This document shows, one piece after another, positions 59,012-64,000 of a stretch of 64,000 bases of DNA. This DNA comes from an uncultured delta proteobacterium (GTDB lineage Bacteria > Myxococcota_A > Polyangia > Fen-1088). Each line of letters begins with the position of its first letter. The first letter of the stretch is position 1. Made by a program: the position numbers and the translations under genes. The notes beneath the pieces were generated by a model. It did no database searches and had not been told where the DNA came from. It was given only the letters and a program-made list of their open reading frames with translations. The stretch spans positions 1 to 64,000 of the forward strand of contig CAVTRY010000017.1 of NCBI GenBank assembly GCA_963737265.1. The letters are read 5' to 3'.

Positions 59012-59195
59012 CGTTCGAGTCGTGCCTCAAGACCCGCCGGATCAGGCGGAAAGTGACAGGGGATATATCGTACCTGGCTCCTCTGCTGAGCGACAATTAC
59101 ATCTCCCCAAAGACGACAGCTACGTCGCCCCGCTTTGAGGCGCGACGGTGACCGTGAGGTAGACCTCCAAGCCCGCAAGCGGGCAGGAGGCACCT

Positions 59196-60695
59196 TTGAA
59201 GCCGGTCACCGACGCCCAAGTGAGGCGTTTGATGGAAGAGATGAGCAAGATTGGAAAAGTAGGCCAGGCCGCCATGAAGGCGGGCATGGACCGGAAGACA
59301 GGGCGGCGATACATCGCCGCGGGCAAGCTACCGTCGGAGCTACGGCAGCCGCGGTGGTGGCGGACGCGCCCTGACGCGTTCGCCGAGGACTGGCCAGCCG
59401 TGGCCAAGTTGCTGGAGGAAACGCCTGGGCTGGAGGCTCAGACGGTGCTGGAGCTGCTGGAGGCGAAGCAGCCAGGGCGGTACAACGAGAGCCATCTTCG
59501 GACAATGCAGCGGCGAATCCGTCGCTGGCGGGCCGAGCATGGTCCTGCGCGTGAGATTTGGTTCACGCAGGCGCATCGGCCCGGTGAAGCCGCGCAAACC
59601 GACTTCACGTCGACGGCGGAGCTTGGTGTGACGATCGTGGGCCAGCTATTTGTGCACCTTTTGTGCGTGACGGTGCTGCCGTACTCGAACTGGCAATGGG
59701 CGACCGCGTGTCTGTCGGAGTCTCTGGCAGCGCTTCGGCGAGGGATCCAGTCGGCGCTGTTCCAGCTTGGGCGGGTGCCGCGATACCACCAAACCGACCA
59801 CTCGACGGCGGCGACACATCAGATCGCTCGCGATGCGGAAGATCGCACTTTCAACGATGAATACAAGGCGGTCATGCGGCACCTCGGAATGGAGCCACGA
59901 ACTACAGCCGTCGGGGCCAAGGAACAAAACGGCGATGTGGAGGCCAGCAACGGCGCGCTCAAGCGTCGGCTTGAACAAGCGTTGCTGGTGCGTGGCAGCC
60001 GCGACTTCGCGGACCAAGACGACTACGAACGCTTCGTAGCCAAGGTGGTCCGCAAAGCCAACGCTTCGCGAGGCCCGCGCGTCGCCGAGGAGATCGAAGC
60101 CATGCGGCCGCTGGTGGTGGAGCGTTTGCCGGAGTACGCAGAAATGACGGCACCTGTGGCGTCGACGAGCACCATCCGGGTCAAGTCGTGCGCCTACTCG
60201 GTGCCGTCGAGGCTGATCGGCGCACGGGTGAGAGTCCGCGTGTTCGAGCACCGAATCGAGGTGTACTACGCCGACAACTTGGAATTGGCCTGCGACAGGC
60301 TGCGAGGCAAGACCGCGCGCATCGACTACCGGCACGTCATCTGGTCTTTGGTGCGCAAGCCGGGCGCGTTTTCTCGCTACGTCTACCGAGAAGAGCTGTT
60401 TCCAAGCGTGACTTTCAGGCGGGCATACGACGCGATCCAGGCGACCAAGCCTGGAATCAAAGGCGACGTTGAATACCTGCGCATTCTTCACCTGGCCGCC
60501 AGCACGATGGAAGCCGATGTCGAGCAAGCGCTCACGACTCTGCTTGCCGATGGGACCATCTTGACGGCGGATGCAACCAAGAAGAGATGCACACAGGCGA
60601 CGGACAGTACCTATCCACCGAGCGTCCCCGCGCTCGAAGCACCGCTGGTCGATCTCGCGTCCTACGACCTGCTCCTCGAACAGGTGGCATCATGA
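59196..60695 (+). CDS. istA: IS21 DDE transposase
   Basis: RTRPDAF, QTDFT, QTDH, GDVEASN, YSVPSRLIG. Confidence 0.95.
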   Translation: MKPVTDAQVRRLMEEMSKIGKVGQAAMKAGMDRKTGRRYIAAGKLPSELRQPRWWRTRPDAFAEDWPAVAKLLEETPGLEAQTVLELLEAKQPGRYNESHLRTMQRRIRRWRAEHGPAREIWFTQAHRPGEAAQTDFTSTAELGVTIVGQLFVHLLCVTVLPYSNWQWATACLSESLAALRRGIQSALFQLGRVPRYHQTDHSTAATHQIARDAEDRTFNDEYKAVMRHLGMEPRTTAVGAKEQNGDVEASNGALKRRLEQALLVRGSRDFADQDDYERFVAKVVRKANASRGPRVAEEIEAMRPLVVERLPEYAEMTAPVASTSTIRVKSCAYSVPSRLIGARVRVRVFEHRIEVYYADNLELACDRLRGKTARIDYRHVIWSLVRKPGAFSRYVYREELFPSVTFRRAYDAIQATKPGIKGDVEYLRILHLAASTMEADVEQALTTLLADGTILTADATKKRCTQATDSTYPPSVPALEAPLVDLASYDLLLEQVAS

Positions 60696-61540
60696 CCAAC
60701 GTCTCCGTAGACACGGTCAAGCCGAGCGCGCTCGACGCTCTGCTGGTGCTTCTGCGCGCGCTCAAGCTGCCTGCCTTCACCCGGCACGCCGAGGAGATCG
60801 CGATCAAGGCCAGCCGCGAGGGGTGGACCTTCAGCCAATACCTCCAGCACCTGGCCGAACTGGAAATCGAAGAGCGCCGAACCCGTCGCATCGATCGCGC
60901 GCTTCGCGATTCGGACCTTCCCACGGAGAAAACCCTGGCCACCCTGGAACGTGGTCGGCTGTCACCCAAGGTGATGAAGCAGATGGCGAGCCTGTGTGAG
61001 GGTGGCTTTGTCGAACGTGGGGAGAACCTGCTCGTCTTCGGACTGCCCGGCCGAGGCAAAAGTCACGTTGTGGCTGCCATCGGCCACGAACTCATCCGGC
61101 GCGGCTACCGGGTCCTCTTCACGCCGACCTTCGCGCTTGTCCAGAGGCTGCTGGCCGCCAAGCGCGACCTTCGCCTGGAACGAGAACTGGCCGCGCTCGA
61201 CATCTATCACGCCGTGATCCTCGACGACATCGGCTACGTCCAGCAGAGCCGCGATGAAATGGAGGTCCTTTTCACCTTCCTGGCCGAGCGGTACGAACGC
61301 AAGAGCGTCCTCATCACCAGCAACCTGGTCTTCAGCGATTGGATCCGCATTTTCAAGGATCCCATGACCACCGCCGCCGCCATCGACCGACTGGTCCACC
61401 ACGCGGTCATCCTTGAGATGACCGGCCCCAGCTACCGCAGCGAAGAAGCACGAAAGAGAGGCGTCACCACCCCAGCGACAACTACGACAACTACCGATCA
61501 ACCAACGACAACTACCCCCGACAACAATGGGGCGATGTAA
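60692..61540 (+). CDS. istB: IS21 helper AAA+ ATPase
   Basis: GLPGRGKSH, ILDDIGY, ITSNL, AAAIDRLVHH; ATGA overlap with istA. Confidence 0.95.
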   Translation: MTNVSVDTVKPSALDALLVLLRALKLPAFTRHAEEIAIKASREGWTFSQYLQHLAELEIEERRTRRIDRALRDSDLPTEKTLATLERGRLSPKVMKQMASLCEGGFVERGENLLVFGLPGRGKSHVVAAIGHELIRRGYRVLFTPTFALVQRLLAAKRDLRLERELAALDIYHAVILDDIGYVQQSRDEMEVLFTFLAERYERKSVLITSNLVFSDWIRIFKDPMTTAAAIDRLVHHAVILEMTGPSYRSEEARKRGVTTPATTTTTTDQPTTTTPDNNGAM

Positions 61541-61706
61541 TTGACGTCACCGGGTGAATGTAGTTGACGTCCAGCACTCCTCCGATTTTACAAAACCGGA
61601 AGACAGTTGCGGCCAGGTTAGGCGCCGCAAGCGTTCCCGCGCTGGGCCTCCGACACGACCGCTGGTGAAATCGTCGCGCTACGCGAAGAATCTCGGAAGC
61701 AGTAGA

Positions 61707-62300
61707 TCAGCGCCGCAGGCCGAGGAGGCGCGGAAGATCCGACAAAGCAGTCTCGAGGGTGACGGCTTCTTCGAATTCCCGCACCCGCAAGGCTTCGACG
61801 TCCTCGGTCCGGCTGGCTAGCAGGCGGGCCCTGTCCACGGCCTGGCGCATGGTGGAGTCGTCGATCCAGTTGCTCGGATCTCCGTCGAGCTGAATCGCAG
61901 CGGGCGTCTCGGCCAGAGCGGGCTCCGTGCGCGGCGCGGTCATTGGGACGCCGCTTACCGGGGTGAAGCGCGCCGGGGTCGCCTTGCGTCCTAGCAGCGT
62001 TTCGAGGGTGTTTCGGCATTCCGGGGCCACCTGAAGAAATTGCACGCCCATGCCGTGCGCGCGCTGAGGTTCCTCTGGATTGAACTCGCGGACCCACGTC
62101 ACCCGGCCGGTGCCCCACAGCAGCGGCGGTCCTTTGATGATGGCGATTTCGAAGCGGATGACTGCGCCGACCGCATGGGGATTGCGGCTGGAAAGGAAGA
62201 TTCCCCCGCGGGTCACGTTGGGGGCGAAGCGCTGGATGAAGGTGTCTTCATCGGGATAGCGAAGATGGATGCGGACGAGCGGGGCGTCTGGGGTCGACAC
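61707..62300 (-). CDS. TIGR02266-family PilZ-like protein
   Basis: F...NVTRGGIFL...GRVTWVR...GMGVQF. Confidence 0.8.
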   Translation of the reverse strand: MSTPDAPLVRIHLRYPDEDTFIQRFAPNVTRGGIFLSSRNPHAVGAVIRFEIAIIKGPPLLWGTGRVTWVREFNPEEPQRAHGMGVQFLQVAPECRNTLETLLGRKATPARFTPVSGVPMTAPRTEPALAETPAAIQLDGDPSNWIDDSTMRQAVDRARLLASRTEDVEALRVREFEEAVTLETALSDLPRLLGLRR

Positions 62301-62850
62301 GGCGAGGGAGTATCGGACGGTCGGGGGCGTGGGTCAACCCACGACCGTGGCGCGGGTGCTTCCCTGAAATGGGGGCTGGGGCTTCACCTCGCCCCGCGCA
62401 GGTGGGATCGGAGGGAAAAACAGGGAGGAACGGAGGACCAGAGGGATCACGGGTTGGGTTGACGAGGCGGCGGAGACCCTCGCGAAGTACGGGGACGTGG
62501 AAATTGACGAGCAGGCCAACCGGCAGTCGTAGGAGCTTGAGATAGGTAATGACCTGTGCCAAGTGGACAGGAAGCAACTGCTCTACCGCCTTGACTTCGA
62601 CGACCAAACGGCCTTCCACCATGAGGTCGAGGCGATAGCCGCAGTCGAGGTCAATGCCTTTGTACTGCAGAGGAATCGCGACCTGACGTTGCGTGCGAAA
62701 TCCACGCAGGCCTAGCTCGCGCGCCAGGCAGTGCTCGTAGGCCGACTCAAGCAGCCCGGGACCGAGGTGACGGTGGACTTCGATGCAGGCGGCGATAATT
62801 TGCCCAGTAAAGTCATGCTGTCTCTGATTCTCCGTTCCTCGCTGTTCCAT
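62248..62850 (-). CDS. GxxExxY protein (PD-(D/E)XK nuclease fold); reads through the element end
   Basis: [47 protein letters not shown]. Confidence 0.9.
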   Translation of the reverse strand: MEQRGTENQRQHDFTGQIIAACIEVHRHLGPGLLESAYEHCLARELGLRGFRTQRQVAIPLQYKGIDLDCGYRLDLMVEGRLVVEVKAVEQLLPVHLAQVITYLKLLRLPVGLLVNFHVPVLREGLRRLVNPTRDPSGPPFLPVFPSDPTCAGRGEAPAPISGKHPRHGRGLTHAPDRPILPRRVDPRRPARPHPSSLSR

Positions 62851-62931
62851 ATCTGCGTTTTCGGCGGCACTCCGCCAAAAGTTGCTACCTCACCGAGCCG
62901 CCGGCTGGGCCCCCGTTTCAGGGATGCACCC
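62354..62931. mobile_element. TIR-bounded GxxExxY element, copy A (578 bp)
   Basis: 23-bp TIRs (21/23 match); CCGTGGCGC at 62345 and 62932. Confidence 0.85.
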
Positions 62932-62940
62932 CCGTGGCGC

Positions 62941-63520
62941 GGGTGCTTCCCTGAAATGGGGGCTGGGGCTTCACCTCGCCCCGCGCAGGTGGGATCGGAG
63001 GGAAAAACAGGGAGGAACGGAGGACCAGAGGAATCACGGGTTGGGTTGACGAGGCGGCGGAGACCCTCGCGAAGTACGGGGACGTGGAAATTGACGAGCA
63101 GGCCCACCGGCAGTCGTAGGAGCTTGAGATAGGTAATGACCTGCGCCAAGTGGACAGGAAGCAACTGCTCTACCGCCTTGACTTCGACGACCAAACGGCC
63201 TTCCACCATGAGGTCGAGGCGATAGCCGCAGTCGAGGTCAATGCCTTTGTACTGCAGAGGAATCGCGACCCTGACGTTGCGTGCGAAATCCACGCAGGCC
63301 TAGCTCGCGCGCCAGGCAGTGCTCGTAGGCCGACTCAAGCAGCCCGGGACCGAGGTGACGGTGGACTTCGATGCAGGCGGCGATAATTTGCCCAGTAAAG
63401 TCATCCTGTCTCTGTTTCTCCGTTCCTCGCTGTTCCAGATCTGCGTTTTCGGCGGCACTCCGCCAGAAGTTGCTACCTCACCGAGCCCCCGGCTGGGGCC
63501 CCCGTTTCAGGGAGGCACCC
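62941..63520. mobile_element. TIR-bounded GxxExxY element, copy B (580 bp); gene has a +1 frameshift at ~63270 and ATG>CTG
   Basis: About 98% identical to copy A; CCGTGGCGC at 62932 and 63521. Confidence 0.85.
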
Positions 63521-64000
63521 CCGTGGCGCTCGCGATGGACAGGCTGAAAAGGCGACGTGCGTTCGCCGTGGTCGCCTCGGCAGCGAGACTCGCAGGAATT
63601 CCTCGGACGTGTGCGAGGGTTTCGAGGGTGCTGACCACGAAGGCCGGTTCGTTGCGGCGGCCGCGATGGGGGACCGGCGCCAGATAGGGAGCGTCAGTTT
63701 CGACCAGGATGCGATCGAGAGGTGCATAGGCTGCCGCCGCCCGCAGGTCGTCCGATTTCTTGAATGTGAGCACGCCTGAAAAGGAGAGATACAGCCCCAG
63801 ATCGAGGTAGCGCTTGGCGTCATTGACGTTTCCGGAAAAACAATGGATGACGCCGCCAGCGTCGGGGATCGCGCCGGCGCCGAGGATGCCGATCGCGTCC
63901 TCATGGGCATCGCGCACGTGGCAGATCACGGGGCGCCCAACCGACGTCGAGAGCGCCAGGAAGCGCTGAAAAACCTCGCGCTGAACCTGGCGCGGCGAGT
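63507..64000 (-). CDS. tatD: TatD family DNase (5' part outside window)
   Basis: ICHVRDAHED, IHCFSG, LVETDAPYLAPVPHRGRRNEP. Confidence 0.92.
   Translation of the reverse strand, partial: SPRQVQREVFQRFLALSTSVGRPVICHVRDAHEDAIGILGAGAIPDAGGVIHCFSGNVNDAKRYLDLGLYLSFSGVLTFKKSDDLRAAAAYAPLDRILVETDAPYLAPVPHRGRRNEPAFVVSTLETLAHVRGIPASLAAEATTANARRLFSLSIASATGVPP

Follow-up and report, generated by a model that had tools for sequence, protein, structure and literature searches.

Insertion sequences (ISs) of the ISKra4 group belong to a Mutator-like DDE transposase superfamily, for which the main text of PMC3942029 gives inverted repeats (IRs) 18-39 bp long and 8-9-bp direct repeats. According to the same text, some members of the group insert 13-17 bp from predicted sigma-A promoters, at more than 20% of their sites. 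The other closest described systems are MITEs (miniature inverted-repeat transposable elements) and mobile insertion cassettes (MICs), treated in the ISfinder/ISsaga description (PMC3129680), and the pairing of repetitive extragenic palindrome doublets with their tyrosine transposases (REPIN-RAYT). The present analysis concerns two tandem units of ~579 bp between a PilZ-domain gene and a tatD-family gene in a 64,000-nucleotide stretch of contig CAVTRY010000017.1 (G000:C17:1-64000), hereafter the window, each unit carrying a single gene of the GxxExxY nuclease family, whose function is given as 'Unknown' in the survey PMC3424549. With a probability of about 0.78, the unit is a non-autonomous mobile insertion cassette or MITE with a passenger gene, moved by an ISKra4-family transposase and inserted twice at one site through promoter-guided targeting.

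The window forms part of a metagenome bin (G000) of 6.55 Mb in 25 contigs, 99.5% complete. The sequence and a repeat search give the order 9-mer, element A, 9-mer, element B, 9-mer, with A and B head to tail:

62345-62353, no strand: target-site duplication copy 1, CCGTGGCGC, promoter side, read from the sequence and the genome copies
62354-62931, minus strand: element A, 578 bp, GxxExxY open reading frame (ORF) intact
62354-62376, no strand: 'T-end' terminal inverted repeat (TIR) of A, GGGTGCTTCCCTGAAATGGGGGC, the end facing targeted promoters
62909-62931, no strand: 'C-end' TIR of A
62932-62940, no strand: target-site duplication copy 2, CCGTGGCGC, separating A and B
62941-63520, minus strand: element B, 580 bp, pseudogene copy
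63521-63529, no strand: target-site duplication copy 3, CCGTGGCGC, tatD side
61707-62300, minus strand: PilZ / TIGR02266-like gene, downstream of the targeted promoter
63507-63998, minus strand: tatD-family gene, cut by the window end

The TIRs span 23 nt and are 21/23 complementary in A (GGGTGCTTCCCTGAAATGGGGGC versus GGGTGCATCCC.../GGGTGCCTCCC...), the repeat search stretching them to 26 nt at 88%. Alignment of A with B yields 11 differing columns spread along the length, 7 A-specific and 4 B-specific, two of them synonymous (GTG/GTT at consensus position 415 and GCA/GCG at 376). The insertion swaps the last codons of tatD for element sequence (...ATGVPP*), and removal of the elements gives ...ATVVG*. 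At all seven same-genus loci with both flanks alignable, PilZ and tatD are adjacent with no element between them; tatD there ends ...VG* (or ...AG*), its TGA lying inside a conserved TTGACC box. The original prediction, drawn from the letters of this stretch, had described two tandem elements sharing a 9-mer, 23-bp TIRs around a single GxxExxY ORF in each unit, about 11 differences between the copies including both synonymous changes, and a natural tatD end once both elements are excised. These observations are borne out by the three 9-mers, the repeat search with the PF13366/TIGR04256 matches, the alignment and the empty loci, respectively.

The tandem could in principle be an assembly artefact hiding a single copy between PilZ and tatD, a reading regarded as quite unlikely. 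The bin holds ~40 near-identical repeats, and the A/B junction is bridged by no contig among the soil metagenome short-read contigs of 4 runs (of 13 listed). These points favour an artefact; it is opposed by the 11 spread differences between A and B, by the joining of both to unique flanks in one contig, and by B-type sequence ending at 63520, which is reproduced in the contigs of 3 of the 4 runs, possibly the source sample.

Evidence for mobility comes from the remainder of the bin. BLAST of A against the whole of G000 returned 43 pieces, which resolve into 31 copies of full length, 94-100% identical, and 8 loci that are partial or interrupted. TIRs are present on all 31 full copies and perfect 9/9 duplications flank 29, each specific to its site except one common to A and B; of the remaining two, one has a duplication offset by a base and the other an imperfect one (7/9). 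Many young copies differ from the consensus at only 0-4 sites. The unit is therefore a genuine transposable element with recent activity. None of the 60 relatives searched contained the full TIR element, 12 of them matching internal parts only. Among the full copies the ORF is disabled in 15 and intact in 13, with recurrent lesions that each occur at different loci (379delG, n=9; 470delG, n=5; 366insC, n=3; ATG>CTG, n=3). Because copies with the same frameshift or lost start sit at different loci, the ORF seems not to be needed in cis. Haplotypes across the family are mosaic or reticulate, A carrying older-subfamily alleles at 6 sites, and A and B fall in different haplotype groups.

Several further observations concern individual copies. 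Two are split by the same 1430-bp IS (G000:C20:14118-16133 and C23:162554-164571), which has the TIR CATAGGCATTAACCCAA and a 9-bp duplication and is represented by 9 duplication-flanked copies in the duplication-plus-IR scan described below. A segmental duplication (G000:C14:364347-365233 / 367115-367967) spans an element copy together with identical flank, so that its two copies are not independent insertions. A lone perfect 23/23 match to the T-end TIR lies in another genus (G018:C51; L042 4563-4585), with neither a second arm nor a nearby transposase.

A candidate source of transposase was identified by scanning G000 for a 9-bp duplication combined with at least 17/22 matches between ends, the TIR of the element not being used. 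Beyond the element, the scan gave two multi-copy IS families, two isolated single matches at the 17/22 threshold, and one single-copy IS of 2120 bp:

G000:C20:66979-69098: 2120-bp IS, 9-bp duplication GGAAAGCGG, TIRs GGGTGCCTAACCGAAACGGGGG / GGGTGCCTACCTAAACCGGGGG

The ends of this IS are 19/22 identical to the C-end TIR of the element (GGGTGCCTCCCTGAAACGGGGG), and its 466-aa ORF matches the ISKra4 family transposase model NF033572 with 256.9 bits (cut-off 205) over profile positions 24-422 of 422, being the only copy of that transposase ORF in G000. The outer ~40 bp at each end of the element resemble the IS; the rest does not. Ends of both the candidate IS and the element lie within the IR length (18-39 bp) and direct-repeat length (8-9 bp) given in the main text of PMC3942029. 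A scan of G000 with the 23-mer TIR, allowing up to 5 substitutions, recovered the element alone, the 2120-bp IS differing at 6/23 positions. Sixteen repeat families obtained by self-megablast of G000 were also considered as TIR partners and rejected, their ends not matching the element TIR; the 1430-bp IS that splits two element copies is one of them. Downstream of its transposase the 2120-bp IS contains a 141-aa ORF (L126 2058-2483) that matched neither Pfam nor NCBIfam and may be a passenger or accessory gene.

The position of the insertion relative to the neighbouring promoter provides a second connection to this transposase family. The promoter features are as follows:

62309-62337, minus strand: sigma-70-type promoter of the PilZ-domain gene, read from the sequence and conserved in 7 sister species
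62332-62337, minus strand: its -35 box, TTGACC, followed by a 17-nt spacer
62309-62314, minus strand: its -10 box, GATACT

Reading outward from the T end of A, the 9-mer is followed by 7 bases and then TTGACC, placing the -35 box 16 bp from the TIR. The T end being defined as the element end at the 3' side of the ORF, 35 non-redundant T-end flanks and 34 C-end flanks were evaluated with a simple -35/-10 promoter score, with 20,000 random genomic sites as control. Positions 17-19 from the TIR in the T-end flanks show T in 19/35, T in 15/35 and G in 25/35, with a -10-like A/T pattern ~17 nt further on. A score of at least 8 was obtained for 11 of the 35 T-end flanks, 3 of the 34 C-end flanks and 0.79% of the random sites, and a score of at least 9 for 7/35, 0/34 and 0.11%, respectively. 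With 11 of the 35 T-end flanks and a -35 box at 16 bp, the element displays the promoter trait of the ISKra4 group as stated in the main text of PMC3942029 (13-17 bp, more than 20% of sites). This targeting, a published habit of ISKra4/TnGBS elements, plausibly explains the double use of one 9-mer upstream of the PilZ promoter.

A single insertion could also account for the arrangement if its 9-bp duplications later underwent unequal crossing-over or slippage, with A and B then diverging by mutation and by gene conversion with other copies. Recombination between flanking direct repeats yields exactly the observed order of three 9-mers around two elements, and the mosaic haplotypes of the family, with older-subfamily alleles at 6 sites of A, fit a history of exchange among copies. 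Set against this are the 11 differences between A and B, exceeding those of most young-copy pairs, their different haplotype groups, the very short recombination substrate that 9 bp offers, and the promoter targeting, which supplies a direct reason for a second insertion; crossing-over is accordingly given roughly the odds of an outside chance. The earlier proposal that the element hit the same site twice is plausible, gaining a mechanism in promoter-guided targeting.

The evidence on ends and target sites also bears on the proposal that the element mobilises itself, the GxxExxY protein, a PD-(D/E)XK nuclease, recognising the 23-bp outer TIRs and acting as transposase of a new element class. 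In favour of this, the protein is encoded by the sole ORF in the element, copy A preserves both the GxxExxY motif and the catalytic D/E/K residues, none of which varies across 29 aligned homologues, and the ORF is under purifying selection with 13 of the 31 full copies intact. This proposal is nonetheless very improbable, the least likely of the alternatives considered. G000 contains a DDE IS whose TIRs are 19/22 identical to those of the element and whose duplication is likewise 9 bp, promoter-distance targeting is a trait published (in the main text of PMC3942029) for the ISKra4 transposase family, and disabled copies with common mutations occupy different loci. Close cassette homologues in sister species (81-91% DNA identity) occur without these TIRs, and in three complete genomes that have the gene its copy number is only 1-2. 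An autonomous transposon needs its own gene intact, with no other transposase fitting its ends; the copies here include many with a broken gene, and the ends are fitted by the ISKra4-type IS.

The preferred reading is movement by an ISKra4-family transposase. Roughly 40 bp from each end of an ISKra4-family IS would have become wrapped around a ~495-bp GxxExxY nuclease cassette, producing a unit without transposase that would be moved in trans, most likely by the DDE transposase of the IS at G000:C20:66979-69098. This transposase would tend to insert at a fixed distance (16 bp) upstream of sigma-70-type -35 boxes in one orientation. A first insertion, presumably B, would have entered the conserved tatD/PilZ promoter site, the promoter-proximal 9-mer keeping its distance to the -35 box. 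A transposase measuring from the promoter would therefore find this 9-mer still a valid target after the first insertion, and a second insertion, presumably A, into exactly the same 9 bp would leave the order 9-mer/A/9-mer/B/9-mer. B would be the older insertion and A the younger, in keeping with the two private mutations and the dead ORF of B. As far as movement is concerned, the nuclease gene would be passive cargo.

Several observations weigh against this reading or limit it. A clear promoter is present in only about one third of the T-end flanks. The TIRs of the IS and the element show 3 mismatches in 22, with similarity fading past ~29 nt, and because they are non-identical the true partner could be a different enzyme or one that has since disappeared. 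G000 also contains another ISKra4-like family, with 11 copies of 1782 bp and a 9-bp duplication, whose TIR has only GGGTG in common with that of the element. Purifying selection on the ORF and its intact state in 13 of 31 copies allow the protein a role in the success of the element, and gene conversion among copies may contribute to the common lesions. The bin has an estimated contamination of 7.6%, and the assembly is the sole source for the tandem.

The 1782-bp IS (e.g. C2:48037-49818) has the TIR GGGTGGGTTGCACGGG, and its transposase shares 33% identity with the ISKra4-family enzyme across residues 239-451. Any TTG signal at 16 bp in its flanks is weak at best, TTG/TGG lying 16 bp from one end in some copies.

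Two alternatives had been offered for the element at the outset. The first, in which a cargo MITE without its own transposase spreads a nuclease gene, is supported by the many copies, of which 29 of the 31 full-length ones have perfect 9-bp duplications varying by site, by the empty tatD sites at 7/7 alignable same-genus loci, and by the autonomous DDE IS with a 9-bp duplication and a TIR 19/22 identical to that of the element. The second, mobilisation by the element's own GxxExxY protein, gives way to that IS and to the 15 of 31 disabled ORFs with lesions shared across loci. The suggestion of a candidate new mobile-element class finds no support for the TIR element, an ISKra4-type IS having matching ends.

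The passenger is a gene with a single recognizable family assignment:

62460-62850, minus strand: GxxExxY / PDDEXK_3 ORF of copy A, ATG at 62850, PF13366 and TIGR04256

The Pfam match of the A ORF covers 62467-62814, with PF13366 at E 9.5e-41 and 139.3 bits (cut-off 22) and TIGR04256 GxxExxY at E 1.6e-41 and 141.3 bits (cut-off 35). These are the only family matches inside the units, which contain no transposase gene. The ORF meets no stop codon inside the element, the frame of A remaining open to 62248. In B, the start codon at 63438 is changed from ATG to CTG, and one extra base near 63269-63271 produces a +1 frameshift. The original prediction mentioned neither the missing stop codon nor the broken gene of B. 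Copy A has residues G32/E35/Y38 and D75/E85/K87, none of which varies among 29 sequences (A included). The ratio of nonsynonymous to synonymous substitution rates (dN/dS) was 0.11-0.26 among four lineages and 0.15 between two element subfamilies, indicating purifying selection. The AlphaFold2 model of the ~130-aa protein has a mean predicted local distance difference test score (pLDDT) of 90.7, and the top Foldseek rows are all PD-(D/E)XK nucleases, weak as matches (best E 0.035; template modelling score, TM, 0.27-0.47), with no Foldseek match at E <=0.001 and no sequence match to a PDB chain. The protein is predicted to be a PD-(D/E)XK nuclease. The statement in the original prediction that GxxExxY proteins are often multicopy is not supported by the 3 complete genomes examined, which contain 1, 2 and 2.

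The interior of the element, consensus ~41-536, is a separate module; sister species that lack these TIRs have it too, G005 at 91% identity and G009 at 81-84%. The module consists of the GxxExxY ORF enclosed in an inverted repeat of its own, which in A comprises two arms:

62419-62443, no strand: inner inverted repeat of A, arm past the domain end, pairing with 62822-62846
62822-62846, no strand: inner inverted repeat of A, arm right after the ATG, encoding N-terminal residues

The arm at 62419-62443 is a degenerate form of an arm found family-wide. The family-wide arm was examined at 80 loci, the best 80 of 200 relatives with a few near-duplicates included, drawn from Myxococcota, Cyanobacteria, Planctomycetota, Verrucomicrobiota, Acidobacteriota, Chloroflexota, Alpha- and Zetaproteobacteria and others. 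The ORF-bracketing inverted repeat exceeds the maximum of 432 shifted controls at 56/80 loci and the 95th percentile of the controls at 64/80. The arm consensus is (T)TSAACC followed by three CRCNRAG units 8-9 nt apart; at least three units occur upstream at 51/80, downstream at 52/80 and on both sides at 41/80 loci, compared with 6/601 control windows. Mismatches between arms are 44 of G.U type and 50 of A.C type (p 0.61), revealing no RNA-strand bias. Because the mismatches lack a G.U bias, a DNA-level repeat is favoured over an RNA stem, the latter being unsupported on either strand. Rfam returned only two sub-threshold miRNA-model matches on the palindromic junction. No link between the PF13366/GxxExxY family and repeats was found in the literature searched.

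A canonical second cassette lies in G000 at C22:198321-198790 (L173 ~1021-1490), with triple-unit arms of ~45 nt, between recA and a comM-like gene whose stop codon it directly follows. At this comM-like/recA site G003, G004 and G005 have a cassette, G011, G007 and G001 have remnants of one, and G006 has none. Since the site is occupied, decayed or empty across sister species, the cassette is an old one, inherited vertically.

ORF-deleted relatives of the cassette were also encountered. G003, G004 and G009 (e.g. L044 1806-2172; L129-L158) contain multi-copy cassettes of ~330-360 bp lacking consensus 181-454, most of the ORF, and some of these derivatives have a different 35-nt outer inverted repeat, ACGGGACCCTCTCAGGGCAGCCCTTTCAAGGTCTT. 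The derivatives of G003 and G004 have heterogeneous left boundaries and no duplication was resolved for them, and this applies equally to the mini-hairpins of G004.

The same arms recur without any ORF. G000 contains ~12 ORF-less palindromes of ~110-150 bp with arms like those of the cassette, five of them with both arms matching the strict pattern. Palindrome positions in G000 are as follows:

C7:138521, C11:175583, C11:208579, C13:201943 and C14:208072: palindromes
C7:193539, C11:141998, C12:153559 and C16:281189, and others: further palindromes

Each arm combines TTCACCAC with three CRCNRAG units, and in most palindromes GGGTTCCGGATC...GATCCGAACCC forms an inner hairpin. Stop codons immediately precede several of the palindromes, and they are diverged from each other; because blastn-short with one found almost no others, these mini-hairpins are considered old and diverged, not a recent burst.

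Co-occurrence of gene and repeat was assessed on 150 sampled genomes of the phylum, each with a completeness of at least 90%; the gene is present in 16 of them and absent from 134. The median number of triple-unit matches per genome is 20 with the gene versus 2 without. At least 20 matches occur in 8/16 genomes with the gene versus 4/134 without (Fisher p 1e-6), and at least 70 in 6/16 versus 0/134. Gene and hairpins thus co-occur strongly in this sample, high hairpin numbers being nearly confined to genomes with the gene. Within the genus of the window, species with the gene have 18-176 matches, and those without it or with a fragment only have 0-9. In G004, G052 and G019, the unit type in the arms of the gene is also that of the hairpins of the genome. 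Exceptions occur in both directions: G139 has 7 genes and 1 triple-unit match, and G044 and G058 (91% and 96% complete) have more than 100 triple-unit matches and no PF13366 match, being either counter-examples to a strict gene-hairpin link or genomes in which the gene was missed or lost. Related genomes are non-independent, and common descent of the hairpins from the cassette would give the same pattern of co-occurrence.

These findings suggest, tentatively and with the balance of judgement on the other side, that GxxExxY could be the protein part of a widespread, undescribed REPIN/RAYT-like system, in which a low-copy PD-(D/E)XK nuclease gene is bracketed by the (T)TSAACC and triple-unit arms and its protein would spread or maintain dozens to ~100 ORF-less hairpins with matching arms in the host genome. 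In G000 alone a copy of this cassette would have been captured by ISKra4 ends and amplified ~40-fold by another route, that of the DDE transposase. The REPIN/RAYT-like pattern of the cargo is put forward as a hypothesis.

Elsewhere in the window, an IS21-family element occupies 59077-61587, with istA at 59196-60695 and istB at 60587-61540 (PF01695, E 4e-56), and is one of ~22 near-identical 2.5-kb copies in G000. The bin is crowded with IS families, of ~1450, 1430, 1782, 1508 and 1295 bp.

In terms of significance, what had been a candidate for a new class becomes a clear and well-documented case of a mechanism already known, namely a miniature element with cargo, of probable ISKra4-family descent, that keeps the promoter targeting of its parent. 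Promoter targeting offers a simple explanation both for exact re-insertion at one 9-mer and for ~40 insertions just upstream of host promoters. The GxxExxY cassette, with its triple-unit repeats and hairpin populations, is the more novel part, undescribed in the literature searched, and the survey provides a concrete, testable hypothesis for a protein family spanning many phyla.

Comparison with known systems places each part of the locus differently. At the level of the protein, Cas4 SSO0001 (4ic1), AF1548 (1y88) and lambda exonuclease (3slp) share the predicted fold and the catalytic D...ExK arrangement, whereas the GxxExxY protein is much smaller (~130 aa) and its matches to them are weak, with none at sequence level.

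The cargo, as distinct from the TIR element, resembles REPIN-RAYT systems, as far as the available parts of their published descriptions go, in combining a low-copy gene flanked by inverted repeats with many ORF-less palindromes having the same arms, in the co-occurrence of gene and repeat, and in vertical inheritance at one locus across species. Flanking repeats that are also dispersed as palindromes and co-occur with the gene were found here (56/80 loci; 8/16 versus 4/134 genomes). It differs in that its protein is, by prediction from sequence, a PD-(D/E)XK nuclease and not an HUH tyrosine transposase, and in that its arms consist of three 8-9-nt units instead of REP sequences. The cassette lacks the HUH enzyme that defines these systems and is thus an analogue of them, not a member.

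The element itself shares with ISKra4/ISLre2/TnGBS elements, as set out in the main text of PMC3942029, the IR length, the 9-bp direct repeats, a terminal base that is G/C, a preferred orientation of insertion at 13-17 bp from sigma-A promoters, and the occasional presence of extra genes of unknown function. The tandem units differ in lacking a transposase, which the separate 2120-bp IS alone encodes. The main text of PMC3942029 does not mention MITEs or MICs ('MITE' occurring 0 times). Those are described, in the available part of the ISfinder/ISsaga account (PMC3129680), as many-copy elements with TIRs and a target duplication but no transposase, presumably activated by the cognate transposase of a related intact IS in the same genome, with MICs carrying a passenger gene as the A/B element does. 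The present element has the same TIRs, varied 9-bp duplications, absence of a transposase and related IS with matching ends, and it is most likely mobilised in trans by an ISKra4-family transposase. Relative to the MICs and MITEs of that account, it is distinguished by its probable parent family, ISKra4, by a passenger that is itself bounded by inverted repeats, and by the promoter-distance targeting that it appears to have inherited.

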